The notes beneath the pieces were generated by a model, which had not been told where the DNA came from, did not search any database, and was given only the letters and a program-made list of their open reading frames with translations. From Amphiscolops sp. MND2022 (lineage: Eukaryota), in contig OZ076409.1 of the NCBI GenBank assembly GCA_964187785.1, forward strand, positions 37,946,001 through 38,010,000: a stretch of DNA of 64,000 nucleotides, given 5' to 3'. Shown one piece after another: positions 2,247 to 64,000 of this stretch; within the stretch, counting starts at the first letter, position 1, and every line of letters starts with the position of its first letter. The translations under genes were made by a program, and so were the position numbers.

Positions 2247-3279
2247 GACCACCCAGTGGAGGCAGGTACCAACTACCAGTAAGGCCTATTCAGACAATAC
2301 TTTATCGGAATTGAAGTTGGTGCAACTTACCATTGTAAACTTTAATGGTTTTCATTTAAAAAAAACATAGTTCAACAATTTATTTTCTTCATCTTCAATA
2401 TTCTACCAACCTCCTCATTGGAAGCACATGAGTTGCAAAGACCTTTATTTGTTGTCGTCGTTCTTCCTCCGAATCGCTTCGCGTTCCTCCGGAACAACGC
2501 CGGTGTTGCTATTTGTCATAAATTCCAAAAAGTGATTGAAACTTCAAAGACGTCTGTTAAATGCTTCAGTAGTATATTCATTTAAAAAAATGTCTCAAAA
2601 CACTTCAAATAGTCAGCGTAAGTGCTCAGGTACCTCATTTTTGACCTCAAAATGTGAAAAAACATCAAAAAATACGAAAAAACACTTTTTTTGGAAAAAT
2701 TCTAAATTTTTCGAATTTTTGTAGAACTTTTGTAGAACTTTTTTTTCGGCCAAAAAAACCAAAATTTTTTCCTTTTTCGATCAAACATAAAACCATTCAT
2801 TTTTATCCATAGGCACTACCTCTTCCATTGGGCACTTCGGAAGTCATGATAAAAAGTGTCAAAAAATCACCTTTTTTGAAGTATATTTCCTATCATATCT
2901 CCCGTTGTATTAGGGCCTGGCCAAAAATTTTTGGCCATCTTGTAGCCCACTTCATTTGTACCTCACACAAAAAGTTTCGGCCTATTGGCCCCAATGGCTG
3001 AGGAGCTGCGGTTGAAAAGATGCGAAAAATGGGTGATTTCGACATACATTTGCTCATAACTTCCGTCACAGGGTATGGAGCGAAAAGTGCCAGAAGGAAA
3101 AAGTTCTTACATTTTGATTTTATGTCCGCATGCAAAGTTTGAATAAATTCTAACGGTTCATTTCCGAGATCGTCTCCGTAGACCCCCCCCCCCAAGATGT
3201 ATATTTTTAGCAGGCTATTCTTCAAGCTCGTCACGGGACCCTACCCGGCCTCGCACTACTCTGTAAAGGTAAAACACCC
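2247..3279 (+). mobile_element. Short unit, family B (1033 bp)
   Basis: Head caggtaccaactaccagtaagg, tail ...ggtaaaacaccc. Near-identical to 34090-35120. Confidence 0.6.
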
Positions 3280-4321
3280 GACCACCCAGTGGAGGCAAAG
3301 CTACCAATTACCAGGGGGCCGAACGGTACTGTCTGTTCTCAATTCATGTATAACTTGTTCCACTTTGGGGTCTCTGATGTGATTTTTTGCCGATGCACAT
3401 CGCAACGACGTAATCATGTCGAACAAAACTAAACAATGACTGCCTTCGGTCGTAACAAGTATCTACAGCCTTCCTTCCGGGTCACCGTTGTTCCTGCGTG
3501 CTGCTGTGCATCCCTCGGAACACCGGTGACAAATAAAATTACGTTTTAAAATCGTGCTACTTATGCATTTGCCTCAACCCTGAGTATTTTTCAAATACTT
3601 TCTGAAACTGGTATATCAAGCTGGTGAAAGCGGTCAATATTAAAAATAAACCCATTTTGGCGCCGTTGACACGATAAATAATGTGATTTTTGAATTCCTG
3701 GTATAAAAATACAATGGAACCCGAAATTTTTTTTTTTTGAAAAAATTCGCAATTTTTAGAATTTTTGTAGAACTTTTGTAGAACTTTTGTATTTTTAATT
3801 TTTTATCCTGGCCACGTGATGTTGAAAACACATCGACTGTACTGCTACCGCTAAAGGAAACATCATTTGTATAAAAGTTCGGAAATTATGACGCAATGAC
3901 AGGAAAATTCACAATTTTTTTTTACTTCGTTCACTTCTATCTCTCAGCCTAGTATCACCAGCCTAATGATTTTTGGCATGCAAACACCTGACATCATTTA
4001 TGCCTCGCATGCAAAGTATCAGCCAATTGTATCCACATGCTGCAGATATCGCAGCGAAAAAGTACCGAAAATGGGTGAAAAACCCGATCATTTGCTCATA
4101 ACTTCCCGCCAAGTAATAGGATCATGTTTGACCAGCAGAACATCATTCTTACATCGGCAAGATAAGTACACATGCAAAGTTTAAAGAAGTTTTATCGGTT
4201 CAATTCGAAAATCGCCGTTTTTTGACTGGTGTGCTAAAGGATATAGTACGACACGCGAAAATTAAGCTCGGCATCGGGACCCTCCCCGGCCTCGCACTAA
4301 ATAATGTGGGGAACTACCCCG
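3280..4321 (+). mobile_element. Short unit, C-type tail with a head unique in this window (1042 bp)
   Basis: Head caaagctaccaattaccagggggccg is seen once. The tail from ~3740 is shared with C units. Confidence 0.6.
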
Positions 4322-4337
4322 GACCACCCAGTGGAGG
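4266..4337 (+). other. Conserved junction block (representative of 34): GCTCGG..GGGACCCTCCCCGGCCTCGCA..hairpin..GACCACC-CAGTGGAGG; putative recombination or nicking site
   Basis: The best-conserved segment across all families. Family identity switches within GACCACC. Function is inferred. Confidence 0.8.
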
Positions 4338-5381
4338 CAGGTACCAACTACCAGTAAGGCCTATTCAGACAATACTTGATTGAAACTGAAGTTGGTGCAA
4401 CTTAAAATTGTAAACTTTAATCGTTTTCATTTCACAACAAACTACCTCAAGAAAGTTATTTTTTCATCTTGGTAATTCTACCAAGCACCTCATTGGAAGC
4501 ACATAAATTGCACAGACTTTTATCGTTTGTCGCCAATCTTCCTCCGATACGCTTCGCGTTCTCCCGGAACATCGGCGATCTTTCTACATGTCATTTAACG
4601 AAAAACATAGAATTTCAACAACTGAGAAAAGATTGCAGTAATTTGGGATTAAAACTTTAAAAGTGTAATCATTAACCAAAAATAAAAATTAAATGTGTCA
4701 AATTCCCCTAAAAAGTCAGTGTAAGTGCTCGGGTACCTCATTTTTGACCTCAAAATGTGAAAAAACATCAAAAACGACGAAAAAACCTTTTTTTTGGAAA
4801 AATTCTAAATTTTTCGAATTTTTGTAGAACTTTTGTAGAACTTTTTTTTGGCCAAAAAAACCAAAATTTTTTCCTCTTTCGATTAAACATAAAACCATTC
4901 ATTTTTATCCATAGGCACTACCTATTCCATTGGGCACTTCGGAAGTCATGATAAAAAGTGTCAAAAAATCACCTTTTTTGGTGTATATTTTCTATCATAT
5001 CTCCCGTTGTATTAGGACCTGGCCAAAAATTTTTGGCCATCTTGTAGCCCACTTCATTTGTACCTCACACAAAAAGTTTCGGCCTATTGGCTCCAATGGC
5101 TGAGGAGCAGCGACTGAAAAGATGCGAAAAATGGGTGATTTCGACATACATTTGCTCATAACTTCCGTCACAGGGTATGGAGCGAAAAGTGCCAGAAGGA
5201 AAAAGTTCTTACATTTTGATTCTATGTCCGCATGCAAAGTTTGAATAAATTCTAACGGTTCATTTTCGAGATCGTCTCCGTAGACCCCCCCCCCCAAGAT
5301 GTATATTTTTAGCAGGCTATTCTTCAAGCTCGTCACGGGACCCTACCCGGCCTCGCACTACTCTGTAAAGGTAAAACACCC
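4322..5381 (+). mobile_element. Short unit, family B variant (1060 bp)
   Basis: B head and B tail, with a different segment at ~4580-4715. Confidence 0.6.
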
Positions 5382-8300
5382 GACCACCCAGTGGAGGCAA
5401 AGGTACAATCACGAGAAAGGCCGTAATGCCATTGTAGAGGTAAGCAAGGAGGCGAAACTAACAGGATAACGACCATCAATTGTTTTGCATTCTACAAAAC
5501 TTGCTCAAAACTGCTATAAACTTCATCTGCAATAGTTCATGCTATAACGCACGCGCGAACCACTACAGGTGATGTACAGGCCATGTGGTTTGTTATCACC
5601 GTTCTTCCTCCGAACTGCTTCGCGGTCCTCCGGAGAACGGTGATGTTGTTATTTACAATTCAACAAAAATATACAGACACATTCAGTTGCAACAACTGAA
5701 ACAACAGTTCAGTATTGTTTCATTTACCTTTTCTGACCTCTGAAACCCCTTTAATTGTCACCGTAAGTGCAGAGTCACTTCTTTTTTGCGTTCAAAATGT
5801 GAAAAAGCATCGAAAAATGAGAAAATCTTTTTTTTTGGAAAAATTCTAAATTTTTAGAATTTTTGTAGAACTTTTGTAGAACTTTTTTATTTTTTATTTT
5901 TTATCCTGACCACGCGATGTTGAAAACACATCGACTGTACTGCTACCGCTCCATTAAACACCATCTCATACAAAGTTCGGAAATTATGACTCGATGACCG
6001 GAGATTTCACAATTTTCCACTACCTTTTCCCCTTCTACCTCTCAGCCTAGTATCACCAGCCTAATGATTTTTGGCATGCAAACACCTGACATCATTTATG
6101 CCTCGCATGCAAAGTATCAGCCAATTGTATCCACATGCTGCAGATATCGCAGCGAAAAAGTACCGAAACAGGGTGAAAAAACCGATCATTTGCTCATAAC
6201 TTCCCGCCAAGTAATAGGATCGGGTTTGACCAGCAGAACATCATTTGTACATCGGCAAGATAAGTACACATGCAAAGTTTCGTTACAATCCTACGGTTCA
6301 ATTCGAAAATCGCCATTTTTTGACAGGTGATCTATAGGTATATAGTTTGACACGCGTAACTTGAGCTCGGCGACGGGACCCTCCCCGGCCTCGCACTAAA
6401 ATATGTGGGGAACTACCCCTGACCACCCAGTGGTGGCAAAGGTACCTTTTGCAAGCACTGGCCGTTATCCATTCTGTGAAAGTAGAGTTGCGGTAAAACG
6501 AAACCTACATTTGTACAACACTCATTTTAAAAACAAGTTTTTACATACATTTTTTTTCACTATAACTGATTTCATATGTAACTGCAGTCACTTTTGCAGA
6601 AAAAGGGACTACAAGCGTTCGCTGCGGGTCACCTCTGTTCCTGCGTGCAGCTCCGCATCACTCGGAACACAGGTGACACTGTGTTTTTAGAGTCCAAATT
6701 GCGATACGTTTATATTTGTTTCCCAAAAACTGAAACCTGATTACTTCGTGATCCCGGGTAACAAACGAATGATATGATTAATACGATGCAAAATAAAGCT
6801 GTTTTGAACACAGCGACGGTAAAAACAAGGTCATTATTACATTCCTGAGAAAAAATTACGCTGGATTTGACAAAAAAATTTTTTTTTGAAAAAATTCTAA
6901 AATTTTAGAATTTTTGTAGAACTTTTGTAGAACTTTTTTATTTTTTATTTTTTATCCTGGCCACGTGATGTTGAAAACACATCGACTGCACTGCTACCGC
7001 TCAAGTAAACACCATCTCATACAAAGTTCGGAAGTTATGACGCGATGACCGGAGAATTCACAATTTTCCACTACTATTTCTACTTCTATCTCCCAGCCTA
7101 GTATCACCAGCCTAATGATTTTTGACATGCAAACACCTGACATTATTTATGCCTCGCATGCAAAGTATCAGCCAATTGTATCCACATGCTGCAGATATCG
7201 CAGCGAAAAAGTACCGAAACAGGGTGAAAAAACCGATCATTTGCTCATAACTTCCCGCCAAGTAATAGGATCATGTTTGACCAGCAGAACATCAGTCATA
7301 CATCGGCAAGATAAGTACACATGCAAAGTTTCAAGAAGTTTTATCGGTTCAATTCGAAAATCGCCGTTTTTTGACTGGTGTGCTAAAGGATATAGTACGA
7401 CACGCGAAAATTAAGCTCGGCATCGGGACCCTCCCCGGCCTCGCACTAAATAATGTGGGGAACTACCCCGGACCACCCAGTGGAGGCAAAGGTACAATCA
7501 CGAGAAAGGCCGTAATGACATTGTACAGGTACGCAATGAGGCGGAACTCACAGAATAACGACCATCAATTGTTTTGCATTGTACAAAACTTGCACAAAAC
7601 GGCTTTCTTTCATCTGCAATAGTTCATCCTATAACGCACACGCGAACCACCACAAGTGATGTCCAGGCAATGTATTTTGTTATCACCGTTCTTCCTCCGA
7701 ACAGCTTCGCGGTCCTCCGGAGAACGGTGATGTTGTTAGTTACAATTTAACAAAAATATACTGACACATTCAGTTCCAACAACTGAAGCAACAGTTCAGT
7801 ATTGTCTCATTTACCTTTTCTGACCTCTGAAACCCCTTTAATTGTCACCGTAAGTGCAGAGTCACTTCTTTTTTGCGTTCAAAATGTGAAAAAGCATCGA
7901 AAAATGAGAAAATCTTTTTTTTTTGAAAAAATTCTAAATTTTTAGAATTTTTGTAGAACTTTTGTAGAACTTTTTTCTTTTTTATTTTTTATCATGACCA
8001 CGCGATGTTGAAAACACATCGACTGTACTGCTACCGCTCCATTAAACACCATCTCATACAAAGTTCGGAAGTTATGACGCGATGACCGGAGATTTCACAA
8101 TTTTCCACTACCTTTTCCCCTTCTTCCTCTCAGCCTAGTATCACCAGCCTAATGATTTTTGGCATGCAAACACCTGACATCATTTATGCCTCGCATGCAA
8201 AGTATCAGCCAATTGTATCCACATGCTGCAGATATCGCAGCGAAAAAGTACCGAAACAGGGTGAAAAAACCGATCATTTGCTCATAACTTCCCGCCAAGT

Positions 8301-11300
8301 AATAGGATCGTGTTTGACCAGCAGAACATCATTTGTACATCGGCAAGATAAGTACACATGCAAAGTTTCGTTACAATCCTACGGTTCAATTCGAAAATCG
8401 CCATTTTTTGACAGGTGATCTATAGGTATATAGTTTGACACGCATAACTTGAGCTCGGCGACGGGACCCTCCCCGGCCTCGCACTAAAATATGTGGGGAA
8501 ATACCCCTGACCACCCAGTGGAGGCAAAGGTACAATCACGAGAAAGGCCGTAATGACATTGTAGAGGTAAGCAATGAGGCAAAAGTCACAGGATAACAAC
8601 CATCAATTGTTTGCTTTGTACAACAGTTGCTCAAAAGTGTTCTTTCATCAGCAATAATTCATCCTATACCGCACGCGCGAACCACCACAGGTGATGTACA
8701 GGCCATGGTTGTTTGTTATCACCGTTCTTCCTCCGAACTGCTTCGCGGTCCTCCGGAGAACGGTGATGTTGTTATTTACAATTCAACAAAAATATACTGA
8801 CAATTTCAGTTCCAACAACTGAAAGAACAGTTCAGTTTTGTCTGATTTACTTTTTGTGACCTCTGAAACCCCTTTAGTTGTCACCGTAAGTGCAGAGTCA
8901 CTTCTTTTTTGCGTTCAAAATGTGAAAAAGCATCGAAAAACGAGAAAATCTTTTTTTTGAAAAATTCGCAATTTTTAGAATTTTTGTAGAACTTTTGTAG
9001 AACTTTTTTATTTTTTATTTTTTATCCTGGCCAGGTGATGTTGAAAACACATCGCCTGCACTGCTACCGCTCAAGTAAACACCATCTCATCCAAAGATCG
9101 GAAGTTATGACGCGATGACCGGAAAATTCACAATTTTCCACTTCTTTTTCTACTTCTATCTCTCAGCCTAGTATCACCAGCCTAATGATTTTAGGCATGC
9201 ACACACCTGACATCATTTATGCCTCGCATGCAAAGTATCAGCCAATTGTATCCACATGCTGCAGATAGCGCAGCGAAAAAGTACCGAAAATGGGTGAAAA
9301 ACCCGATCATTTGCTCATAACTTCCCGCCAAGTAATAGGATCATGTTTGACCAGCAGAACATCATTCTTACATCGGCAAGATAAGTACACATGCAAAGTT
9401 TAAAGAAGTTTTATCGGTTCAATTCGAAAATCGCCGTTTTTTGACTGGTGTGCTAAAGGATATAGTACGACACGCGAAAATTAAGCTCGGCATCGGGACC
9501 CTCCCCGGCCTCGCACTAAATAATGTGGGGAACTACCCCGGACCACCCAGTGGAGGCAAAGGTACAATCACGAGAAAGGCCGTAATGACATTGTAGAGGT
9601 AAGCAATGAGGCGGAACTCACATGATGACGACCATCAATTGTTATGCATTGTACAAAACTTGCTCAAAACGGCTTTCTTTCATCTGCAATAATTCATCCT
9701 ATAATGCACGCGCGAACCACCACAGGTGCTATACGGGTCATGTTCTTTGTTATCACCGTTCTTCCTCCGAACTGCTTCGCGGTCCTCCGGAGAACGGTGA
9801 TGTTGTTAGTTACAATTCAACAAAATTATACTGACACATTCAGTTCCAACAACTGAAGCAACAGTTCAGTATTGTCTCATTTACCTTTTCTGACCTCTGA
9901 AACCCCTTTAATTGTCACCGTAAGTGCAGAGTCACTTCTTTTTTGCGTTCAAAATGTGAAAAAGCATCGAAAAATGAGAAAATCTTTTTTTTTGAAAAAA
10001 TTCTAAATTTTTAGAATTTTTGTAGAACTTTTGTAGAACTTTTTTATTTTTTATTTTTTATCCTGGCCACGTGATGCTGAAAACACATCGACTGCACTGC
10101 TACCGCTCCATTAAACACCATCTCATACAAAGTTCGGAAGTTATGACGCGATGACCGGAGATTTCACAATTTTCCACTACCTTTTCCCCTTCTACCTCTC
10201 AGCCTAGTATCACCAGCCTAATGATTTTTGGCATGCAAACACCTGACATCATTTATGCCTCGCATGCAAAGTATCAGCCAATTGTATCCACATGCTGCAG
10301 ATATCGCAGCGAAAAAGTACCGAAACAGGGTGAAAAAACCGATCATTTGCTCATAACTTCCCGCCAAGTAATAGGATCGGGTTTGACCAGCAGAACATCA
10401 TTTGTACATCGGCAAGATAAGTACACATGCAAAGTTTCGTTACAATCCTACGGTTCAATTCGAAAATCGCCATTTTTTGACAGGTGATCTATAGGTATAT
10501 AGTTTGACACGCGTAACTTGAGCTCGGCGACGGGACCCTCCCCGGCCTCGCACTAAAATATGTGGGGAAATACCCCTGACCACCCAGTGGTGGCAAAGGT
10601 ACCTTTTGCAAGCACTGGCCGTTATCCATTCTGTGAAAGTAGAGTTGCGGTAAAACGAAACCTACATTTGTACAACACTCATTTTAAAAACATGTTTTTA
10701 CATACATTTTTTTCACTATAACTGATTTCATATGTAACTGCAGTCACTTTTGCAGAAAAAGGGACTACAAGCGTTCGCTGCGGGTCACCTCTGTTCCTGC
10801 GTGCAGCTCCGCATCACTCGGAACACAGGTGACACTGTGTTTTTAGAGTCCAAATTGCGATACGTTTATATTTGTTTCCCAAAAACTGAAACCTGATTAC
10901 TTCGTGATCCCGGGTAACAAACGAATGATATGATTAATACGTGGCAAAATAAAGCTGTTTTGAACACAGGGACGGTAAAAACAATGTCATTATTACATTC
11001 CTGAGAAAAAATTACGCTGGATTTGACAAAAAATTTTTTTTTTGAAAAAATTCTAAATTTTTAGAATTTTGGTAGAACTTTTGTAGAACTTTTTATTTTT
11101 TATTTTTTTATCCTGGCCACGCGATGTTGAAACCACCTCGAGTGTACTGCTACCGCTCCATTAAACACCATCTCATACAAAGTTCGGAAGTTATGACGCG
11201 ATGACCGGAGAATTCACAATTTTCCACTACTTTTTCTACTTCTACCTCCCAGCCTAGTATCACCAGCCTAATGATTTTTGGCATGCGAACACCTGACATC

Positions 11301-13702
11301 ATTTATGCCTCGCATGCAAAGTATCAGCCAATTGTATCCACATGCTGCAGATATCGCAGCGAAAAAGTACCGAAACAGGGTGAAAAAACCGATCATTTGC
11401 TCATAACTTCCCGCCAAGTAATAGGATCATGTTTGACCAGCAGAACATCAGTCATACATCAGCAAGATAAGTGCACATGCAAAGTTTAAAGAAGTTTTAT
11501 CGGTTCAATTCGAAAATCGCCGTTTTTTGACTGGTGTGCTAAAGGATATAGTACGACACGCGAAAATTAAGCTCGGCATCGGGACCCTCCCCGGCCTCGC
11601 ACTAAATAATGTGGGGAACTACCCCGGACCACCCAGTGGAGGCAAAGGTACAATCACGAGAAAGGCCGTAATGACATTGTAGAGGTAAGCAATGAGGCGG
11701 AACTCACATGATGACGACCATCAATTGTTTTGCATTGAACAAAACTTGCTCAAAACGGCTTTCTTTCATCTGCAATAATTCATCCTATAATGCACGCGCG
11801 AACCACCACAGGTGCTATACGGGTCATGTTCTTTGTTATCACCGTTCTTCCTCCGAACTGCTTCGCGGTCCTCCGGAGAACGGTGATGTTGTTATCTACA
11901 ATTCAACAAAATTATACTGACACATTCAGTTCCAACAACTGAAGCAACAGTTCAGTATTGTCTCATTTACCTTTTCTGACCTCTGAAACCCCTTTAATTG
12001 TCACCGTAAGTGCAGAGTCACTTCTTTTTTGCGTTCAAAATGTGAAAAAGCATCAAAAAATGAGAAAATTTTTTTTTTTGAAAAAATTCTAAATTTTTAG
12101 AATTTTAGTAGAACTTTTGTAGAACTTTTTTATTTTTTATTTTTTATCCTGGCCACGTGATGTTGAAAACACATCGACTGCACTGCTACCGCTCCATTGA
12201 ACACCATCTCATTCAAAGTTCGGAAGTTATGACGCGATGACCGGAAAATTCACAATTTTCGACTACTTTCTCTACTTCTATCTCCCAGCCTAGTGTCACC
12301 AGCCTAATGATTTTTGGCATGCAAACACCTGACATCATTTATGCCTCGCATGCAAAGTATCAGCCAATTGTATCCACATGCTGCAGATATCGCAGCGAAA
12401 AAGTACCGAAACAGGGTGAAAAAACCGATCATTTGCTCATAACTTCCCGCCAAGTAATAGGATCGTGTTTGACCAGCAGAACATCATTCGTACATCGGCA
12501 AGATAAGTACACATGCAAAGTTTCGTTACAATCCTACGGTTCAATTCGAAAATCGCCATTTTTTGACAGGTGATCTATAGGTATATAGTTTGACACGCAA
12601 AACTTGAGCTCGGCGACGGGACCCTCCCCGGCCTCGCACTAAAATATGTGGGGAACTACCCCTGACCACCCAGTGGAGGCAAAGGTACAATCACGAGAAA
12701 GGCCGTAATGACATTATAGAGGTAAGCAATGAGGCGGAACTCACATGATGTCGACCGTCAATTGTTTTGCATTGAACAAAACTTGCTCAAAACGGCTTTC
12801 TTTCATCTGCAATAATTCATCCTATAACGCACGCGCGAACCACCACAGGTGATGTACAGGCTATGTTGTTTGTTATCACCGTTCTTCCTCCGAACTGCTT
12901 CGCGGTTCTCCGGAGAACGGTGATGTTGTTATTTACAATTCTACAAAAATATACTAACACATTCAGTTCCAACAACTGAAGCAACTGTTCAGTACTGACT
13001 CATTAACCTATTCTGACCTCTGAAACCGCTTTAATTGTCACCGTAAGTGCAGAGTTACATCTTTTTTGCGTTCAAAATGTGAAAAAGCATCGAAAAATGA
13101 GAAAATCTTTTTTTTTTTGAAAAAATTCTAAATTTTTAGAATTTTTGTAGAACTTTTGTAGAACTTTTTTATTTTTTATTTTTTATCCTGACCACGCGAT
13201 GTTGAAAACACATCGACTGTACTGCTACCGCTCCATTAAACACCATCTCATACAAAGTTCGGAAGTTATGACGCGATGACCGGAGATTTCACAATTTTCC
13301 ACTACCTTTTCCCCTTCTACCTCTCAGCCTAGTATCACCAGCCTAATGATTTTTGGCATGCAAACACCTGACATCATTTATGCCTCGCATGCAAAGTATC
13401 AGCCAATTGTATCCACATGCTGCAGATATCGCAGCGAAAAAGTACCGAAACAGGGTGAAAAAACCGATCATTTGCTCATAACTTCCCGCCAAGTAATAGG
13501 ATCGTGTTTGACCAGCAGAACATCATTTGTACATCGGCAAGATAAGTACACATGCAAAGTTTCGTTACAATCCTACGGTTCAATTCGAAAATCGCCATTT
13601 TTTGACAGGTGATCTATAGGTATATAGTTTGACACGCGTAACTTGAGCTCGGCGACGGGACCCTCCCCGGCCTCGCACTAAAATATGTGGGGAAATACCC
13701 CT
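5382..13702 (+). mobile_element. Eight consecutive short units with C-type tails (starts 5382, 6421, 7471, 8509, 9541, 10578, 11627, 12664; 1032-1050 bp)
   Basis: Six have the head caaaggtacaatcacgag and two (6421, 10578) have the head tggtggcaaaggtaccttttgc. The tails contain gacatcatttatgcctcgcatgcaaagtatcagcc. Confidence 0.6.
5595..5644. other. Conserved internal ~50-nt stem-loop (representative; one per short unit at about +200 to +230)
   Basis: ATCACCGTTC...GAACGGTGAT outer stem with a CGAA-CTGC-TTCG inner stem. Compensatory changes are seen in other families. Confidence 0.8.
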
Positions 13703-14735
13703 GACCACCCAGTGGAGGCAAGGAAACTAATTACCAGAGTGGGCGGGCGGCTTCCGTGGAACTATATTTTAAAACATGTTACTAGTACTGTTTACTTTAG
13801 GTAACATCCATGGAAATGTTTTTCGTCTTTTCAACTGATGAAAAACTCTGTTTTTCATCAGTTATCAGATGATTACATATTACTCAGTACAACCACCCGG
13901 GTACTTGGTTATTTCTATCCGTTGTTCCTGCGAACTGCTTCGCATTTCTCAGGAACAACGGAGAAGTTGTTTCTTGAACTTTTTTTCCACAAACAATGGC
14001 GGGACTTCTAACAAAAGAACATTTAGTTCTGTAAAATGACCACTCATTGACAAAGAGGTATGTTAAAATCCTTCAATTAGTCATCCTAAGTGCTATGTTA
14101 CGTCATTTTTGTGCTCAAATTGTGAAAAATTGTCGAAAAACGAGAAAATCTTTTTTTTTGAAAAATTCGTCAATTTTAGAATTTTTGTAGAACTTTTGAA
14201 GAACTTTTTTGTTTTTTATTTTTTATCCTGACGACGTGATGATGAAAGTACCTCCAAAGTACTGCTACCGCTAAAGGAAACACCATCAATACAAAAGTTC
14301 GGAAGTTATGACGGAATGACCGGACTTTTCACAATTTTCGGTTTATATTTCAGCTTCTATCTCTCAGCCTAGTATCACCAGCCTAATGGTTTTTGACATG
14401 CAAACATTTTCCTTCATTTATGCCTCGCATGCAAAGTTTCAGCCAATTGTATCCACAGGCTGGTTGTACCGAGGCGTAAACATGCCGATAATAGGTGAAA
14501 AAACCGATCATTTGCTCATAACTTCCGACACAGTGTTGCAACCATGTTTTGCCAGGAGAAAAAAGTTCTTATAATTTTGAGATCTACCTACACACAAAGT
14601 TTCATTCAAATCGTATGGCTCAATTCCAAAATCGCTGTTTTTCTGGACCCCTCAGTCTAGATAGAAATCTGACAGCATGGCTCGGACTCGGGGCCCCTCC
14701 CCCACCTCGCAAATATTGTGGTAGAGTATACTCGT
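13703..14735 (+). mobile_element. Short unit, family E (1033 bp)
   Basis: Head caaggaaactaattaccag, tail ...gagtatactcgt. Near-identical to 37200-38231. Confidence 0.6.
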
Positions 14736-43129: not shown

Positions 43130-44199
43130 GACCACCTAGCGATGGAGCGATTTAGAGCACTGCTAGTAAAAGGCCTTAACTTAACAGCGCAACCTTTGCT
43201 AATGGAGTATGAAAAAGAAATATTGAGGCTAGCAATTTTTTGTAAGTTATTCTGGGATTGAACGATAAATATCATCACCCTGACGAGTGAATGTCTATGG
43301 TGACTGCCGTCAACTTAACTCAAGGGATTTTGTGGTTTTTTGCTTTCTAAGCAAGCACCGTTGTTCCTGCGAGATGCTGCGCAACTCTCGGAACACCGGT
43401 GACAATAAATTTTGCTGAACGATTTGCAATAACCTAATCATCACTTTGAGGCATTTTTTGGCACAACTTATGCCCTAGGGCTGTTTTGCTCGATACAGAG
43501 GGTAAACCCCAGCCCCATAATCAGTTTCAAGTTTGCTGCAGCTGCTTCCTGTGCTGCATCATATCCAACTGAAAGTGATACAATTATTTCTCATCCAATC
43601 ACTCATAATGACATATACCCCAAAAAATCAACTTTTTTCTGATGTCTCCTACAGGTGAACGAATTACATTTTTGGAACCCCCATTGGATGCTGACAATTT
43701 TTGACCTTATTGTCCGAGACCGTGCGGACCGTTCCGGCTGCTCAAATCATCAATTTGATCAAAGTGATTCAGTCAAAAAAATAATTTTGGCACTCTTCGG
43801 CACTTTGGTTTCCCCCGGGGGGAAATTTTTTCGGACCGTTCGAAAGACCGTTGACCGTTGATGATTTTCATAAAAGTGCACTTTGCCGCTACGGGCTTTC
43901 CTTCATGGTGAAAATGGCCTTTGATTTGGTCATTGATTAATCAAAGATGAAAAAAGATGAAAAAAACCAAAAAAACCCAAAAAAACCCTACAAAATGAAT
44001 TTTCCTGGAAAAACGTCAGCAGAAAAAAATTCTTAAATTTTTGAGATAAAGCCACATGCAAAGTTTCAGACAAATCCTACGGGTGAATTTCGAGATCGGT
44101 TAAAATACTTCGCAATCCTGAAGGTAGGAATTGATAGAATGTGCTCGGCTCTCGGGACCCTCCCCGGCCTCGCAATATTTTCTGATGGGCATCCCCCTT
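43130..44199 (+). mobile_element. Single short D unit between two long units (1070 bp)
   Basis: D head and tail, flanked by GACCACC cores. Confidence 0.6.
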
Positions 44200-53100: not shown

Positions 53101-53995
53101 GAGTTTATCCAATGTCATTTTTCATGTCACCTTAGCTCACTGACAATTTTTGGTTATATTGTCGGAGACCGTGCGGACCGTTGTTGACGAGGAATTCACA
53201 TGTTTCGAAATATGAGCTGATTTTCAAAAAATCATTCCTCACTATAAGGCATTTTTTGGCACAATCATTGCTCCAGACATACTTTGCGGTAGTACCGTGG
53301 AGAGACCCCAGCCCCCTGATCTTTTTCATAATAATGACTTACGCTGCTACTGGTGCTGCGTGTTGAGCAATTGAATGAAAAGTACTGTATAAAAAATTTC
53401 ATCATTGCTCATCATGCCATACACCCCAAAAAATCGACTTTTTTATTACGACCCCTACAGGTGTACAAATTATGTTTTTGAAACCCTCATTGAATGCTGA
53501 CAATTTGTGGTCTTATGGTCCGAGACCGTTCGGACCGTTTAACATGCTTAAAATGACCTATAAGTACAGGTGATATTGGTGATACTTCACATTTCGGCAT
53601 TTTTTGGCACTTTAAGTGCCTCCAGTGGCACTTTTCTGGCACCATCAATCGCATCGTTGCATTTCACAACTTTTTGTTAGTATGCATCATTGGGCTAGCG
53701 TGCACCGTGTAAAAGTTATTAAAGAAAAACGTTATATCCGAACAAAAATTCGTTATATCCGAACTTTTGTCAAAAACACCATGAAGGACAAGTTTGCGGG
53801 AAAAACGTCAGCAGAAAAAAGTTCTTAGAATTGGGAGAAATGGCCATATGCAAATTTTCAAGAAATTCTCACGGCTCATTTAAGAAATAACCTTCCCACA
53901 CGTAGGTGTCGGGTAGTATATAGAGATCCTTATATAACGCGCTCGGTCCCGGGTCCCTCCCCGGCCTCGCACATTATTGCAGTGGGACAACACGT
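44200..53995 (+). mobile_element. Two long units, family L subtype 2 (44200-49090, 4891 bp; 49091-53995, 4905 bp)
   Basis: Highly similar to each other after the first ~260 bp. Tail ...gcagtgggacaacacgt. Confidence 0.6.
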
Positions 53996-56900
53996 GACCA
54001 CCCAGCGGAGGTAATTAGAGCACTACTAGAGGGCGGCCTAAAGCAAAGGATGAGACGTTTGTTTATAAAGATTGCAAATCTTTCTTGTACATTCCGCTAC
54101 CTGTTTTGGTTCAATTTTTCATGGAATCAACTATAAAATTCATCACCAGCATGCCACAGAATTGACAACAATGAAGGCAGTTGAAACAAAGACAAGGTAT
54201 TTTGAGCTTTTCCTTGAAGCAGACTCCGTTGATCATGCAAGATGATGCAAACCTCGAAACACCATTGCTATAACATCAGTGACAATGAAACTTTTCTACA
54301 AATGAAATTGTCACTAATGCAGAGCGATTTCTTCAAATCCTTGGTAATGTTAGGATACAAAGTAATGGCCATTGAGGTGGTTAGTATTGGATCAAAACAC
54401 CGCATTCCACCCCCATTCGAATGCGATGACATAGGAGAAGAGGTGAAACTTTGACTCACCCTTCAGAAATTAAACAACAAACGAGAAGAATTTTTAAAAA
54501 AGTAGCAATGAATAACTTATTGAAAGACTTTTTGTGTTATGTATGCCGCAGAACTTTCTTTCATTTGTTTTCGGTAAGTTTTTTTACACTATGAATACCA
54601 TGATTATTCCCATCCTTTAAACAAATTTTAAATGCTGACACTCAATTAGAGTTTGTTGGCACTTTGACACTACTAATGAAAGCTTTTAACAGAAGATGTA
54701 ACGTATTGTCAGGTGGAGGGGATGCGGGGTTCCTGAAGCCAATAACGGAGGACATAGTAAAACGACGGGACATACCACGGATTCATAGAATCTGAATGTT
54801 TTGATTTGTTTAGGTATTTTTGACAGACACCAAGAAAAAGTGTTGTGTTTGAATTCAGTGATGATAAGCATTAACGAAATGAAAGTGTCAGCTTATTACA
54901 TGTTATCAAATACAGACACAGTGGAAGGCTCAAAAATACTGTCCACAAGTGAACAGGATGAAGAGGGGTTCTTGTTTTTTGTTGGTTGTAGTGATAGCCT
55001 TCCAAGTTGGCCGAAGGCCAACTTGGAAGGCTATCACAAGATTCATTTATTAGTTATAAGCTCGTTCCAAAAATGCATGGTTCAATGTGAATCGTATAAT
55101 AAGCAAACGTAATCAATGTGAGTAGGTTGTCAAGTCAATAGAGTGTGCAAAGTGAAAGTAGTGAGAATGGAATTTTATTTAGTTACTATAAAGTTGCTTC
55201 AGTCTTTGCTAATTCAACATTTAAGGAACATTGCTTGTAAAACAAATGACTCTTTTCAGCAGTAACAGAGGAGTTTGGAACAACGGGAAGATCAAAGACT
55301 TTGAAACAGATCCACAGTTGTATAACCCTACTAATTCAACTGCTGATTAATGTTTACATTATCAAGTTTTAGAGGGAAACTGCTAAAATTCTGATGATAA
55401 TATTTTAGTACTATGGTAAGTTTTGTGTTACACAATGCTTTATGCACCACAGTTTGCATATTCAACCCTCTGGAGACCCCATATTCGCAACACTGATGCT
55501 ATATTATTAGTCATTGACGGGAAGTACGTAAGTTTTTATTTTATTCTGTTTTTATTGTGAAAATGTGTCATCGAAATTTTTACTTGAAAGTTGAATTTTT
55601 CTTTGCGAAACGTGTTTTTGTGGCTCACATGTCACTGAAGCCTTTGATACCAGTAATACATCTGTTTTTCAGTATTTTGGAGGCCACAGGTTACGTCAGA
55701 CACAATAATGTTGTTCAAAACACCGGAAATCAATTTTTGACCTGACAAAAATTGGGTTTTTGTGGAAAAAATTTTTCTTGTTAAGAACGAATGGGATGAA
55801 AAATCTGTCCAGACCGAGCATGGTTGTATTATAAAAACTATTTATAACACTAAACAAGTTGTTTGGTGTCTGTGAGGTCGTTGTTGAGCGTTAATACCAT
55901 AACCGACAAGGACCGATGAAAAAAAGCATAATGGAACGTGACAATTAACAGAAATTTTTGGGAAATATCTCCTCTCATCACTACTTTTGACATGTCGAAA
56001 TTCCTTCCATTGATTTGTGAAGTCTGGTATCTACCTTGGTTGATCCTCCGGTTTAGTGTTAGACCAAAAACAGCCCTAGTAAGGCAGCCGATACCAAAAA
56101 AAGTGGTAACACATCCGGAAAAAAGCTGAAGTTGTAAACATGCGTCTACTCAGTTTGATATTTTTAGGCACCTCAGATTCTGAAAAACTACCTTGAAAGT
56201 TCTGTAAACATCATTTTCATAAATTAGAGTGCTCGTGGGTTGTATTAGAAGCCAATAGTTGGTGATAAAGCTGCATTTTGTCAATTCGACTCCGCCAAAA
56301 ATGTGATATTGTATGAATTTTCGACAAATTATCCTATCGATTAGTAAATATTGTTGCCCATGACTACTCGAATGATAGTGTCAGTGTCATGTCAATGCCC
56401 AGTTGCGTTCTTTCTATGCCACTGGACGAAGAAAACAGGTTAGTTGATGTTTGTGGGCAAAAATTGGCGGTCCTATACTTCAAAAACTGAATTGGAAACA
56501 AACTTTTGGTTGGATTTTTGTTTGTCAACGGGGCTTTTGGCAATAAAAATCACAATATAACCTCTCTGGAAGGTCAATATGTGTTTCACGTCAGCTGTAC
56601 ACTTGGTTGTGAACAAAAAAGAGTCTTGATTCACTGAAAAAGCACTTTAGCTATTTTCCAATCAACCAAAGTATCGATATGTACAGTATCATTATCTCTT
56701 GTGTAACGTCTAATGGCAGTTGATTTTTTAAAAATGACTCCAAAATCACAGTGGCCACTTTGCTTATGCTATCCACGTGCCATGTTATGCAAAACAACAT
56801 TTTATGTGGCTATTGTAATTTAAAAATTGATTTTGGGCACTGAAAAACATGTTTTTTGGGTGAAAAATTGTTTTTCGAAACCCAAAATCTCACTTTGTTA

Positions 56901-59900
56901 GCACGAAAAATCCAAATTTTTACAGAAGCATGCTACAGTTAAACTGATGGGTTTTTGGGCGTCACCATAGCTCAAGAAAAATTTTCTACCTTATGGACGG
57001 AGACCGTACAGACCGTTGTTCGCGAGCAAATGACCTTTTTGTAAGTCCGAGTCGCCTGAAAAAATGCTATGTAAAGCATGTAAGCACATTTATTACTCCC
57101 TGTAGCATTTGGTGAAAACTTTTTATCACCATTCGGTGGACCAGTGGCCCACGTTCACTTTCCAAAAGATGACCCATGTTGCTATCTGTACTGTGTCAGG
57201 AGATATACATACCCGAAATGTAGTTACGATGTGACAACATGACTCTCTATAACTCTCGGACTCACCTAAAAATTCTAAATTTTTTCAGAAGCACTCTACA
57301 AGTGTACTAATAAGTTTTTGAGCGTCACCATAGCACACTGACACTTTTTGAACTTATGGTCGAAGACCGTACGGACCGTTGTTTGAGCAGAAATGGGCTT
57401 TTTGTAGGTCCGAGTCGTGCAAAAAAATGCTAAATACCTCATCTTGGCCTTTTATTCACGCCATGTAGCACTTATTGAAAACTTTTTATTACCATTCGGT
57501 AGACCAGTGGCCCACGTTCATTTTTGAAAAGATGACCCATAATGCTATCTGTACTCTGGCAGGAGATATGCATATCCGAAATGTTATTACGAAGTGACAC
57601 CATAACTCTCTATCCCATGTAAAAATTCGAAATTCGTTCAGGAGCTACCTACACTTGTTCTGATGTGTTTTTGGGCGCTACCATGTTACACTGACAAATT
57701 TTGATCTTATGGTACGAGACCGTTCGGACCGTTCCTGAAGAGAAAATCACCATTTTGTGACTCCGAGTCGACATGAAAAATTGAAAAAAACACTTCTGAG
57801 AGTTTTTTTCTTTGACAATGGCAACTAGGCTGTGTTTTTTACACTCAATCGTTAGACCAGTGGCCAATGTTCATTTTCATAAAGATGACCCACAGTGCTA
57901 ACTGTACTCGGTTATGAGTAACATGATTATGAAATGTTCATACGACGTATTACATCAACTCGGACCGTGACTCAAAAAAATTAAATTTTTTCAGAGGCCC
58001 CCCAGAGGTTAACCAATGTCATTTTCGGTAACGCCAAAGCTCACTGACATTGTTTGACCTGGTTGTCGGACACCGTGCGGACCGTTGCTGGCGAGGAATT
58101 CACATGTTTGTAAAAATGAGCTGATTTGCAAAAACTCATTCCTCACTATAAGGCATTTTTTGGCACAATCATTGCCCCAGGCCTACTTTGCGATAGTACC
58201 GTGGGTAGACCCCAGCCCCCTGATACTTTTCATAAATATGACTTCCCCTGCTACTGGTGCTGCGTGGTGAGTAATTGAATGAAAAGTACTGTATAAAAAA
58301 TTTCATCATTGCTCATCATGCCATACACCCCAAAAAATCGACTTTTTTATTACGACCACTACAGGTGTCTAAATTATATTTTTGAAACCCTCAATGAATG
58401 CTAAAAATTTTTGACTTTATGGTCCGAGACCGTTCGGACCGTTTAACGTGCTTAAAATGACCTATAAGTACAGGTGATACTGGTGATACTTTACATTTTG
58501 GCATTTTTTGGCACTTTTAGTGCCACCAGCGGCACTTTTTTGGCACTATCATTTGACGCGCCACATTTCACAATTTTTTGTTAGTATGCCCATTTGGGCT
58601 ACCGTGCACCGTGTAAAAGTTATTAAAGAAAAACGTTATATCCGAACAAAAATTCGTTATATCCGAACTTTTGTCAAAAACACCATGAAGGACAAGTTTC
58701 TGGGAAAAACGTCAGCAGAAAAAAGTTCTTAGAATTGGGAGAAATGGCCGTATGCAAATTTTCAAGGAATTCTCACGGCTCATTTCGAAAATAACCTTCC
58801 CACGCGTAGGTGTCGGGTAGTATATAGAGATCCTTATATAACGCGCTCGGTCCCGGGTCCCTCCCCGGCCTCGCACATTATTGCAGTGGGACAACACGTG
58901 ACCACCCAGCGGAGGTAATTAGAGCACGACTAGAGGGCGGCCTAAAGCAAAGGATGAGACGTTTGTTTATAAAGATTGCAAATCTTTCTTGTACATTTCG
59001 CTACCTGTTTTGGTTCAATTTGTCATGGAAGCAACTATAAAATTCATCACCAGCATGCCACAGAATTGACAACAATGAAGGCAGTTGAAACAAAGACAAG
59101 GTATTTTGAGCTTTTCCTTGAAGAAGACTCCGTTGATCATGCAAGATGATGCAAACCTCGAAACACCATTGCTATAACATCAGTGACAATGAAACTTTTC
59201 TACAAATGAAATTGTCACTAATGCAGAGCGATTTCTTCAAATCCTTGGTACTGTTAGGATACAAATTAATGGCCATTGAGGTGGTTAGTATTGGATCAAA
59301 ACACCCCATTCCACCCCATTCGAATGCGATGACATAGGGGAAGAGGTGAAACTTTGACTCACCCTTCAGAAATTAAACAACAAACGAGAAGATTTTTTAA
59401 AAAAGTAGCAATGAATAACTTATTGAAAGACTTTTTGTGTTATGTATGCCGCAGAACTTTCTTTCATTTGTTTTCGGTAAGTTTTTTTACACTATGATTA
59501 CCATGATTATTCCCGTCCTTTAAACAAATTTTAAATGCTGACACTCAATTAGAGTTTGTTGGCACTTTGACACTACTCATGAAAGCTTTTAACAGAAGAT
59601 CTAACGTATTGTCAGGTGGAGGGGATGCGGGGTTCCTGAAGCCAATAACGGAGGACATAGTAAAACGACAAGACATACCACGGATTCATAGAATCTGAAT
59701 GTTTTGATTTGTTTAGGTATTTTTGACAGACACCAAGAAAAAATGTTGTGTTTGAATTCAGTGATGATAAGCATTAACGAAATGAAAGTGTCAGCTTATT
59801 ACATGTTATCAAATACAGACACAGTGGAAGGCTCAAAAATACTGTCCACAAGTGAACAGGATGAAGAGGGGTTCTTGTTTTTTGTTGGTTGTAGTGATAG

Positions 59901-62900
59901 CCTTCCAAGTTGGCCGAAGGCCAACTTGGAAGGCTATCACAAGATTCACTTATAAGTTATAAGCTCGTTCCAAAAATGCATGGTTCAATGTGAATCGTGT
60001 ATTAAGCAAACGTCATCAATGTGAGTAGGTTGTCAAGTCTATAGAGTCTGCAAAGTGCAAGTAGTGAGAGTGGAATTTTATTTAGGTACTATAAAGTTGC
60101 TTCAGTCTTTGCTAATTTAACATTTAAGGAACATTGCTTGTAAAACAAATGACTCTTTTCAGCAGTAACAGAGGAGTTTGGAACAACGGGAAGATCAAAG
60201 ACTTTGAAACAGATCCACAGTTGTATAACCCTACTAATTCAACTGCTGATTAATGTTTACACTATCAAGTTTTAGAGGGAAACTGCTAAAATTCTGATGA
60301 TAATATTTTAGTACTATGGTATGTTTTGTGTTACACAATGCTTTATGCACCACAGTTTGCATATTCAACCCTCTGGAGACCCCATATTCGCAACACTGAT
60401 GCTATATTATTAGTCATTGACGGGAACTACGTAAGTTTTTATTTTATTCTGTTTTTATTGTGAAAATGTGTCATCGAAATTTTTACTTGAAAGTTGAATT
60501 TTTCTTTGCGAAACGTGTTTTTGTGGCTCACATGTCACTGAAGCCTTTGATACCAGTAATACATCTGTTTTTCAGTATTTTGGAGGCCACAGGTTACGTC
60601 AGACACAATAATGTTATTCAAAACACCGGAAATCAATTTTTTACCTGACAAAAATAGGGTTTTTGTGGAAAAAATTTTTCTTGTTAAGAACGAATGGGAT
60701 GAAAAATCTGTCCAGACCGAGCATGGTTGTATTATAAAAACTATTTATAACACTAAACAAGTTGTTTGTTGTCTGTGAGGTCGTTGTTGAGCGTTGATAC
60801 CATAACCGACAAGGACCGATGAAAAAAAGAATAATGGAACGTGACAATTAACAGAAATTTTTGGGAAATATCTCCTCTCATCACTACTTTTGACATGTCG
60901 AAATTCCTTCCATTGATTTGTGAAGTCTGGTATCTACCTTGGTTGATCTTCTGGTTTAGTGTTAGACCAAAAACAGCCCTAGTAAGGCAGCCGATACCAA
61001 AAAAAGTGGTAACACATCCGGAAAAAAGCTGAAGTTGCAAATATGCGTCTACTCAGTTTGATATTTTTAGGCACCTCAGATTCTGAAAAATTACCTTGAA
61101 AGTTCTGTAAACATCATTTTCCTAAATTATAGTGCTCGTGGATTGTATTAGAAGCCAATAGTTGGTGATAAAGCTGCATTTTGTCAATTCGACTCCGCCA
61201 AAAATGTGATATTGTATGAATTTTCGACGAATTGTCCTATCGATTAGTAAATATTGTTGCCCATGACTACTCGAATGATAGTGTCAGTGTCATGTCAATG
61301 CCCAGTTGCGTTTTTTTAATACCACTAGACCAAGAAAATAGGTTAGTTAATGTTTGTGGGCAAAAATTGGCGGTCCTATACTTCAAAAATTGAATTAGAA
61401 ACAAATTTTAGGCTGGATTTTTGTTTGTCAACGGGGATTTTGTCACTCAAAATCGCAATATAACCATTGTGGAAGGTCAATATGTGTTCCACGTCAGCTG
61501 TACACTTGGTTGTGAACAAAAAAGAGTCTTGATTGACTGAAAAAGCAATTTAGCTATTTTCCAATCAACCAAAGTATCGATATGTACAGTATCATTATCT
61601 CTTGTGTAACGTCTAATGGCAGTTGATTTTTTAAAAATGACTCCAAAATCACAGTGGCCACTTTGCTTATGCTATCCACGTGCCATGTTATGCAAAACAA
61701 CATTTTATGTGGCTATTGTAATTTAAAAATTGATTTTGGGCACTGGAAAACATGTTTTTTGGGTGAAAAATTGTTTTTCGAAACTCAAAATCTCACTTTG
61801 TGAGCACGAAAATTCCAAATTTTTACAGAAGCATGCTACAGTTAAACTGATGGGTTTTTGGGCGTCACCATAGCTAAAGAAAAATTTTCTACCTTATGGA
61901 CGGAGACCATACAGACCGTTGTTCGCGAGCAAATGACCTTTTTGTAAGTCCGAGTCGCCTGAAAAAATGCTATGTAACGCATGTAAGCACATTTATTACT
62001 CCCTGTAGCATTTGGTGAAAACTTTATATCACCATTCGGTGGACCAGTGGCCCACGTTCACTTTCCAAAAGATGACCCATGTTGCTATCTGTACTGTGTC
62101 AGGAGATATACATACCCGAAATGTAGTTACGATGTGACAACATGACTCTCTATAACTCTCGGACTCACCTAAAAATTCTAAATTTTTTCAGAAGCACTCT
62201 ACAAGTGTACTAATAAGTTTTTGAGCGTCACCATAGCACACTGACACTTTTTGAACTTATGGTCGAAGACCGTACGGACCGTTGTTGGAGCAGAAATGGG
62301 CTTTTTGTAGGTCCGAGTCGTGCAAAAAAATGCTAAATACCTCATCTTGGCCTTTTATTCACGCCATGCAGCACTTATTGAAAACTTTTTATTACCATTC
62401 GGTAGACCAGTGGCCCACGTTCATTTTTGAAAAGATGACCCATAATGCTATCTGTACTCTGGCAGGAGATATGCATATCCGAAATGTTATTACGAAGTGA
62501 CACCATAACTCTCTATCCCACGTAAAAATTCGAAATTCGTTCAAGAGCTACCTACACTTGTTCTGATGTGTTTTTGGGCGCCACCATGTTACACTGACAA
62601 ATTTTGATCTTATGGTACGAGACCGTTCGGACCGTTCCTGAAGAGAAAATCACCATTTTGTGACTCCGAGTCGACATGAAAAATTGAAAAAAACACTTCT
62701 GAGAGTTTTTTCTTTGGCAATGGCAACTAGGCTGTGTTTTTTGCATTCAATCGTTAGACCAGTGGCCAATGTTCATTTTCATAAAGATGATCCACAGTGC
62801 TAACTGTACTCGGTTATGAGTAACATGATTATGAAATGTTCATACGACGTATTACATCAACTCGGACCGTGACTCAAAAAAATTAAATTTTTTCAGAGGC

Positions 62901-63801
62901 CCCCCAGAGGTTAACCAATGTCATTTTCGGTAACGCCAAAGCTCACTGACATTGTTTGACCTGGTTGTCGGAGACCGTGCGGACCGTTGCTGGCGAGGAA
63001 TTCATATGTTTGTAAAAATGAGCTGATTTGCAAAAACTCATTCCTCACTATAAGGCATTTTTTGGCACAATCATTGCCCCAGGCCTACTTTGCGATAGTA
63101 CCGTGGGTAGACCCCAGCCCCCTGATATTTTTCATAAATATGACTTCCGCTGCTACTGGTGCTGCGTGGTGAGTAATTGAATGAAAAGTACTGTATAAAA
63201 AATTTCATCATTGCTCATCATGCCATACACCCCAAAAAATCGACTTTTTTATTACGACCACTACAGGTGTCTAAACTATATTTTTGAAACCCTCAATGAA
63301 TGCTAAACATTTTTGACATTATGGTCCGAGACCGTTCGGACCGTTTAACGTACTTAAAATGACCTATAAGTACAGGTGATACTGGTGATACTTTACATTT
63401 TGGCATTTTTTGGCACTTTCAGTGCCACCAGCGGCACTTTTTTGGCACTATCATTTGACGCGCCACATTTCACAACTTTTTGTTAGTATGCATTATTGGG
63501 CTAGCATGCACCGTGTAAAAGTTATTAAAGAAAAACGTTATATCCGAACAAAAATTCGTTATATCCGAACTTTTGTCAAAAACACCATGAAGGACAAGTT
63601 TCTGGGAAAAACGTCAGCAGAAAAAAGTTCTTAGAATTGGGAGAAATGGCCGTATGCAAATTTTCAAGGAATTCTCACGGCTCATTTAAAAAATAACCTT
63701 CCCACGCGTAGGTGTCGGGTAGTATATAGAGATCCTTATATAACGCGCTCGGTCCCGGGTCCCTCCCCGGCCTCGCACATTATTGCAGTGGGACAACACG
63801 T
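53996..63801 (+). mobile_element. Two long units, family L subtype 3 (53996-58899, 4904 bp; 58900-63801, 4902 bp)
   Basis: Highly similar pair with a perfect 22-bp-arm palindrome and the same tail as subtype 2. Confidence 0.6.
54991..55037. repeat. Perfect inverted repeat, 22-bp arms with a GAA loop (representative; one per complete long unit)
   Basis: GTGATAGCCTTCCAAGTTGGCC-GAA-GGCCAACTTGGAAGGCTATCAC. Confidence 0.95.
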
Positions 63802-64000
63802 GACCACCCAGTGGAGGCGAGGTTGTTGCAGTTACACTGCCGAGAAGCGAGGAAAATGTGTATAGAAAGAAAAGAATTTTCAACAATAAAATTTTCGTTT
63901 TACGTTCTGTTGACAAAAGTAGTCTTTGTTGTGTTCAACGTATTTCATATTTGGCATCTCCACGACACGTGGTGCCTTACAATGCTACTTGTCACTTATC
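63802..64000 (+). mobile_element. Start of another long A unit (truncated by the window)
   Basis: Matches the heads at 22156 and 27054. Confidence 0.6.

Follow-up and report, generated by a model that had tools for sequence, protein, structure and literature searches.

The 64,000-nucleotide stretch of the Amphiscolops sp. genome analysed here (the window; G000:C1:37,946,001-38,010,000 of a 1.07-Gb assembly) is occupied throughout (1..64000) by a head-to-tail array of what are very probably non-autonomous Helitron-like elements, all on the minus strand, and the array extends from approximately G000:C1:37,907,600 to beyond 38,091,000. A preliminary description of the window had reported 34 precise junctions that carry the word GACCACC, with no target-site duplication and all units in one orientation, and this count was confirmed: GACCACC occurs 35 times on the plus strand and once on the minus strand, against an expectation of 1.9 per strand from base composition, and 34 of the 35 plus-strand copies are unit junctions. 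The remaining copy (31940), located 10 bp inward from the end of an A-type unit, was seen again at L013:4992, one of the loci fetched from elsewhere in the genome, and therefore belongs to that type of unit. The window contains 33 complete units, 25 of 1,031-1,071 bp and eight of 4,891-4,905 bp, all co-oriented, which fall into ten groups at 85% identity. They had been described as different families but are related, having terminal and internal blocks in common at 65-90%. Some units are internal mosaics of two subfamilies, and exchange is therefore not confined to the junctions.

Read along the plus strand, the window opens with the 5′ part of a 4.9-kb A-type unit (1..2252; 94% identical to the unit at 22162-27059), followed by a 1.03-kb P-type unit (2253..3285), a 1.04-kb Q-type unit (3286..4327), a 1.06-kb P-type unit (4328..5387) and eight Q-type units of 1.03-1.05 kb (5388..13708). 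A 1.03-kb E unit (13709..14741) precedes five 1.07-kb D units (14742..20091), in which neighbours are 87-96% alike and each has a closer relative elsewhere in the genome. Then come two Q-type units (20092..22161), two 4.9-kb A units that are 90.5% alike (22162..31955), two D units (31956..34095), two P-type units (34096..36168), a Q-type unit 99% identical to that at 7477-8514 (36169..37205), an E unit (37206..38237), a 4.9-kb L-type unit (38238..43135), a D unit 99.3% identical to a copy at G000:C1:23.96 Mb (43136..44205), four 4.9-kb L-type units of two subfamilies (44206..63807) and the 3′ end of a further A-type unit (63808..64000). The neighbour combinations quoted earlier were all correct: the E tail is followed by TAGCG at 14736 and by CAGTG at 38232, D tails are followed by CAGTG at 20086, 34090 and 44200, and D heads follow E, D, A (31950) and L (43130) tails. 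An Rfam scan of the window gave no match, nothing reached the Pfam cut-offs in the 15 scanned of the window's 33 frames of at least 100 amino acids (aa), and tblastn with six RepHel proteins found no transposase remnants in it. A search of sequencing runs listed two with a small share of matching sequence and none from RNA.

Three further features of the units were observed. Unit lengths fall into tight classes (1.03-1.07, 1.27-1.29, 1.40, 1.97-1.99 and 4.9 kb; window, L013, L017, L026, L027, L029 and L030) in families no more than 55-82% alike. A 363-bp repeat is present in about three diverged copies in each 4.9-kb unit, including the A-type unit that opens the window (window positions 257-1253, 41153-42026, 47106-47802, 56906-57770 and 61809-62673), and part of the repeat also occurs once in D units. 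Finally, an 11-bp tandem (TTTGTAGAACT, about three copies) is found midway along P, Q and E units, for example at 3753-3791 and 5851-5886, as well as in the 5′ arm of the autonomous elements, and may be a binding site.

On the coding (minus) strand each junction reads CTRG and then directly GTGG. GACCACC is thus two abutting element ends seen on the wrong strand: its first six letters are the 5′ end of one unit in reverse complement and its last C is the partner of the G in the adjoining unit's 3′ CTRG, while the YAG that follows is part of the conserved seam. At 14736..14745, for example, CTAG (the 3′ end of a D unit, 14745-14742) is followed by GTGGTC (the 5′ end of the E unit, 14741-14736), and the cut falls between 14742 and 14741. 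The exchange point, which had been placed within 7 bp, therefore maps to a single bond, GACCAC^C, although the internal mosaics show that exchange has also occurred elsewhere. Among 113 junctions selected by pattern, the 3′ end was CTAG in 64 and CTGG in 49.

Insertions into host DNA allowed us to define the ends independently of the seams. A dispersed host repeat was found in 40 empty copies and one filled copy, the latter carrying a two-unit insertion of 3.76 kb with both ends and no duplication, which narrowed the cut to three bases. In 28 3′ ends of 2-kb families that abut host DNA, with no seam before them, the final G of CTAG was retained in 27; the following base was A in 13, G in 12, T in two and C in one, and the second base was T in 25. 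The solo copy L042 begins with GTGG at the target CC^TT, the insertion L045 lies at CTAG^AT, and neither has a target-site duplication; CTCG^GT was also observed as a host target. At L045:161-229, host DNA carries an E unit and a 2-kb unit separated by 15 bases, each inserted at a target of its own. Eight host-flanked loci were followed, of which two gave both ends, one opened an array and five aligned over only 49-128 bases. No second empty site was found at C1:23.96 Mb, where the flank is single-copy. Together these cases show that the element on the minus strand is 5′-GTG[G/C]...CTRG-3′, with the preferred target CTNG^RT and no duplication. A cut at GG^T, in which the 5′ T would be kept as in other Helitrons, was ruled out by the host-flanked 3′ ends and by L042, and a hAT-like reading of the CAGTGG/TAGCG ends was rejected for want of a matching inverted end and of a duplication.

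A 5′ stem of at least 4 bp beginning at base 6-10 was present in 20 of 33 types of 5′ end, against 6.2 in shuffles, with a mean folding z of only -0.3, and a purine-rich motif 38-49 bases in was seen in 28 of the 33, a similar motif having served to select the junctions. A 3′ hairpin with z below -1 was found in 11 of 30 end types and is clear in some families only. An imperfect inverted repeat was recognised by eye only.

The same kind of array recurs across the genome. The pattern GACCACCYAGYGRWGG gave 487 matches, grouped in arrays, against five for a control pattern; as junctions were chosen by pattern, genome-wide tallies of this kind are partly circular. In the fetched loci many further families are joined likewise, their units measuring about 1.07, 1.28, 1.4, 2.0 and 4.8-4.9 kb, and the sampled stretches at C1:70.6-72.3 Mb are largely unbroken arrays. 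Outside the window the junctions read GCCCACC, GGCCACC, CCCCACC, AACCACC or GCACC, then YAG, and the variable letters follow the left-hand family. The core that had been called invariant is so in the window only, and GACCACC is not a universal core. Other large arrays were seen at G000:C2:102.05-102.39 Mb, C2:103.6-103.9 Mb and C3:2.6-3.8 Mb, and the intact transposases of the first of these have the opposite orientation to those of the second. Frames of long terminal repeat (LTR) retrotransposons, which we take to be BEL/Pao-like, lie less than 1 kb from two array ends (L011:3268-8368, L024:3-6383). At L018:8509 the seam is deleted and two D units are fused.

Some of these arrays contain autonomous elements. 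In the array at C1:3.59-3.63 Mb, where an intact transposase occupies G000:C1:3,602,340-3,610,790, two long units carry minus-strand frames of 2,816 and 2,853 aa, and intact transposases in arrays elsewhere measure 2,300-2,850 aa, with an OTU domain, an HUH Rep with two tyrosines, a PIF1 helicase fused behind the Rep and a C-terminal GIY-YIG domain. In the 2,816-aa frame, Pfam recognised PIF1 (E 2.5e-10), GIY-YIG (E 1.8e-9), weakly OTU (E 0.008) and, just above its cut-off of 28.9 bits, Helitron_like_N (29.3 bits, E 1.2e-6); no AP endonuclease appeared in the Pfam scan of the transposase. The HUH motif and the Y-x-x-x-Y motif are conserved across 24 and 54 homologues, the histidines being invariant and both tyrosines nearly so in the 54 aligned. 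A structural model of the Rep (predicted local distance difference test score, pLDDT, 85) had Helraiser 7lcc as its best and only strong match (Foldseek E 7.5e-7; Z 15.8, root-mean-square deviation 4.6, 330 aligned residues; next match Z 5.6). The closest solved structure to the GIY-YIG domain is SLX1 (E 3.8e-10), and the residues Y, Y, G, R, H and E, presumably catalytic, are retained in 78-93% of 85 aligned domains. The ratio of nonsynonymous to synonymous substitution rates (dN/dS) between two transposase copies was 0.14 over 1,322 codons. In a search with the Rep-helicase core 47 of 711 candidates were scored, and 46 full-length, stop-free matches, 33-100% identical, were listed; 22 of these 46 lie at C1:71.0-76.5 Mb, all on one strand.

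The autonomous elements have additional features that we note as such. A motif GIESNPGP, which we take to be 2A-like, opens the transposase frames ahead of OTU (L020:340-8790 (-), L022, L035:3565-4500 (+)). Two accessory frames follow the transposase in three elements (L019:2255-3262 and 5465-6202 (-); L021; L036:1092-3989 (+)). One encodes a 326-aa protein that contains cysteines and matched nothing in Pfam or Atlas; it has five unnamed homologues and a model of pLDDT 32. The other encodes a protein of 200-245 aa, judged SGNH-hydrolase-like by eye only. In the 3′ arm of an 18.8-kb autonomous element, a separate 283-aa fragment (L019:7319-8170 (-)) contains the 2A-like motif and the start of OTU, and is perhaps a captured 5′ piece of another element.

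Units in the window can be connected to these elements through their ends. The Q-type unit at 3286..4327 matches the autonomous element at G000:C1:3.614-3.630 Mb over 740 bp at its 5′ end (84.5%) and in its last 35 bp (identical), and the eight Q-type units that follow match the C1:3.6-Mb elements over about 590 bp of the 5′ end at 88-90%; overall, the 5′ ends of Q-type units match over some 590-740 bp at 82-90%, and their 3′ ends over 35 identical bases. The P-type unit at 2253..3285 matches a third autonomous element (G000:C2:103.634-103.648 Mb) over 748 bp at 92% and 138 bp at 88%. As P and Q units share both ends with autonomous elements, they are non-autonomous derivatives of them. The system, which had not been recognised in the preliminary description, is thus Helitron-like, and we consider it highly probable that the units of the array are non-autonomous rolling-circle transposons derived from OTU-Rep-PIF1-GIY-YIG elements and stacking at their own junctions.

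Tandem Helitron arrays have been reported and explained by read-through or concatemers (PMC4067079, PMC5876387), and distantly related Helitrons standing side by side in bats and maize have been ascribed to terminator bypass (PMC4067079, PMC5148889). Terminator read-through, insertion of concatemers and unequal crossing-over could in principle build such arrays without any targeting of junctions, and the runs of same-family units, which exceed chance, as well as the internal mosaics, a sign of recombination among units, fit this view. However, concatemers and duplications should leave near-identical neighbours, whereas none of the 23 complete D copies in hand adjoins its closest relative, and adjacent D pairs are no more alike (91.4%) than all pairs (93.2%). 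D units occur in 16 left and 14 right contexts, and near-identical pairs of units in the window mostly have no neighbours in common. Copies therefore arrive singly, and we regard ordinary Helitron behaviour as an improbable account of the arrays. The earlier proposal of precise addition, unit by unit, at the junction left by earlier units and without target duplication is supported.

Slightly less probable still is that the elements insert at any CTNG^RT without recognising a resident end, and that arrays mark the gene-poor heterochromatin in which copies survive. Host-flanked insertions do exist, their consensus is short, and the seam fits it. Inside an array, though, survival should be equal everywhere, yet the window's coding strand has 63 CTNG^RT sites, of which the 34 seams account for all 34 joins and the 29 internal ones, 17 of them CTNG^GT, are empty. 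No insertion occupies any of the 53 CTNG^RT sites on the opposite strand, and the units share one orientation. Across the genome, 151 D 5′ ends lie on CTNG, and D ends departing from the seam at the tested A gave no match at either end, with patterns that fix one outer base and sample about three quarters of the copies. A single D 3′ end was found outside a seam, and of two such matches for Q/L-type 3′ ends one was genuine. Insertion is therefore junction-seeking, the elements nearly always landing on a seam between earlier copies.

Several observations weigh against this interpretation. Same-family neighbours are over-represented in the window (13 of 32, against 4.5 in shuffles), D-D makes up 45 of 100 listed D rows by hand count, and eight of the 33 window units do adjoin their closest relative within the window, so that local duplication or read-through may add to some runs; family-specific recognition of the resident 5′ end would also explain the excess. 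Targeting is not absolute, given the 28 host-flanked 3′ ends of 2-kb families and the non-consensus site of L042, mosaic structure occurs within several units, and one junction has been lost by deletion. Recognition of the resident 5′ end rests on few cases, namely three of 100 listed D 5′ ends, which adjoin what appears to be host DNA, against the one D 3′ end outside a seam; D is also the 5′-most unit at three array ends, which fits such recognition, although the numbers are small. The families of the window itself have a weak 3′ hairpin, and an autonomous partner was not found for the D, E, A and L families.

Two other explanations fare far worse. In a tyrosine-recombinase cassette array, as favoured in part by the preliminary description, circles would integrate through a common 7-bp overlap, GACCACC, and the precise joins, the lack of duplication and the single orientation are what such a system would produce; but a single-bond cut already contradicts a 7-bp overlap, the 7-mer varies by family, host targets share as little as the cut position with it, elements with the same ends encode an HUH RepHel, and no recombinase domain was found in the 15 window frames scanned or in five frames of autonomous elements, a genome-wide recombinase search not having been made. 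This chemistry is very unlikely, while the HUH option raised alongside it agrees with a partner enzyme of the Helitron RepHel type. It is equally hard to credit that the assembly stitched similar repeats together at a common word: the region is wholly repetitive, yet the seam logic is the same on several chromosomes, copies differ by 1-13% in a unit-specific manner, the filled site agrees with the 40 empty ones to the base and intact reading frames traverse the arrays.

How might junction-seeking insertion of rolling-circle transposons work? SLX1 prefers flaps and branches. Non-autonomous units would arise by internal deletion of autonomous elements. The seam CTRG^GTGG, which adjoins the conserved 5′ stem and subterminal motif, would serve both as the closed end of a circular transposon and as a perfect target. 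As circle junction, chromosomal seam and target consensus would be the same sequence, a transposase at the resident 5′ end could open the seam: it may nick the resident 5′ end as it would a donor and join the incoming strand there. Each insertion would then fall directly upstream of the resident element and leave two usable seams, and repeated rounds would yield mixed, co-oriented arrays that can reach megabase scale. During insertion, a flap or branch of the displaced strand is probably trimmed by the SLX1-like GIY-YIG domain, which is a guess on our part. Starting from the observed ends, target, lack of duplication, partner enzyme and independent arrival at seams, we infer the nick-and-join steps and the circle intermediate from the biochemistry of Helraiser, which forms circles in which the two ends are joined and can cut this junction in a reversible reaction (PMC5876387).

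The elements share the general features of Helitron-like (RepHel) transposons, i.e. a Y2 HUH Rep, a fused PIF1, no target duplication and, for P and Q units, ends in common with autonomous elements. They resemble neither described group in full, as defined in PMC11417382 and PMC4067079. As in HLE1 (Helraiser), there is a RepHel with two tyrosines and PIF1, a 3′ CTRR, no duplication and non-autonomous partners with common ends, whereas the 3′ hairpin of HLE1 is clear in some families only; unlike in HLE1, the 5′ end is GTG and not TC, the target is CTNG^RT and not A^T, Rep motif 2 lacks the RG of ExQxRGL(P/L)HxH (PMC4067079), and there is a C-terminal GIY-YIG and near-exclusive use of junctions. 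HLE2 (Helitron2, Helentron and proto-Helentron) shares the upstream OTU and an endonuclease after the helicase, and in part the signature around motif 2 (the aromatic-x-R before it is present as WFR, but RGS is absent) and the 5′ stem (in 20 of 33 end types); in Helentron, however, the endonuclease is AP, whereas here it is GIY-YIG, there is no T^T target, the ends are CTRG, and the branch is separate from the genome's five RGS/RGM/RGT-type Reps. One capture of GIY-YIG was described with HELIANO, in an HLE2 family of Sphagnum that has terminal inverted repeats and sits at TT sites (PMC11417382).

Motif 2 of the new clade is E[FY]Q-x3-4-GNL[PS]HxH (consensus EFQxxxGNLPHxH; EFQDQTSAFPHIH in the query transposase), without the RG of both published groups. 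In a quick IQ-TREE analysis, 41 clade members fell on one side of a branch (SH-aLRT, an approximate likelihood ratio test, 99) from seven other Helitron Reps of the same genome, references that were labelled by motif and are not curated HLE1/HLE2 sequences, with a long-branch warning. The genome also has conventional Helitron-like Reps of KRGL type and RGS/RGM/RGT type (e.g. C8:51,740,782, C5:69,436,906). Matches to the core at E 1e-30 or better formed 280 clusters at 50% identity, and among 150 listed, GIY-YIG was present in 84 of the 88 clusters in which the helicase is complete and leaves room behind it. Names were looked up for 30 proteins: a single cluster bore that of a eukaryote, Myxine glutinosa (hagfish, with elements such as UniRef UPI00358E8AEA), and the others were unnamed or 'predicted GIY-YIG endonuclease'. 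Termini of relatives elsewhere were not recovered: metagenomes gave one 2.2-kb contig, viral contigs none and prokaryote genomes one 2.5-kb contig, none of which reaches a terminus. The last (L034), from a bacterial metagenome-assembled genome, carries a 53%-identical relative and is most likely eukaryotic contamination. The transposase lineage with GIY-YIG fits neither described Helitron group.

Other systems share single traits with the arrays. Integron cassette arrays and Cryptons also stack unrelated-looking units in order at a regenerated site, but by tyrosine recombinase and double-strand exchange, and the identical overlap core at ends and target of tyrosine-recombinase elements (Crypton, DIRS, integron) is not seen here, nor are the homogenised monomers with most-alike neighbours of satellite DNA. 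The target of IS91 resembles the element's own end. IS91 also has a Y2 HUH enzyme and oriented insertion at a short target, a tetranucleotide, but is bacterial and has no fused helicase, GIY-YIG or mixed megabase arrays, and Replitrons have a Y1 Rep without helicase and short terminal direct repeats, whereas here a Y2 Rep is fused to PIF1 and the ends differ (10.1101/2022.12.15.520654). Paramecium has a third Helitron clade, also outside HLE1 and HLE2, with very long transposases, strict orientation, targeted insertion and satellites inside elements; by its description it is set apart, inserting in telomeric C4A2 repeats with a CCAA end, whereas here the end is CTRG and no telomeric repeats lie at junctions, and 'GIY' is absent from the main text (PMC13085455). 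In the literature we found no account of such a clade or of junction-seeking arrays, within a search that did not extend to Repbase, Dfam, most subscription journals or the supplementary material of PMC11417382 (unclassified clusters, Fig. S8) and of PMC13085455, which could hold members; the accessible parts of PMC13565253, PMC6431247, PMC8788227 and 10.64898/2026.09.17.752431 contain nothing on such a clade.

Beyond this genome, it is quite possible, if somewhat less likely than not, that the combination of RepHel and SLX1-like GIY-YIG marks a third major, undescribed lineage of eukaryotic rolling-circle transposons, present in many eukaryotes and normally homing into its own junctions, which would thereby build its own safe harbour in the form of multi-family arrays, ordered and up to megabases long, in which the history of insertion is preserved. 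To our knowledge, eukaryotic Helitrons choose only a dinucleotide, the telomere-targeted Paramecium clade excepted; here a clade with dozens of intact copies under purifying selection stacks more than 30 end types at one bond. Repeat-finders would class such arrays as satellite, and they offer a direct route from transposon to megabase tandem domain. As the clade lies barely at the Pfam Helitron cut-off, it has probably been missed in many genomes. The defined substrate makes target choice and opening by Helitrons testable and points to a scarless, iterative integrase. If the third lineage is real, its transposase would amount to a natural single-strand integrase that is addressed by sequence, leaves no scar and has its landing site restored each time it acts, and the integron-like arrays that it builds may act as chromosomal domains.

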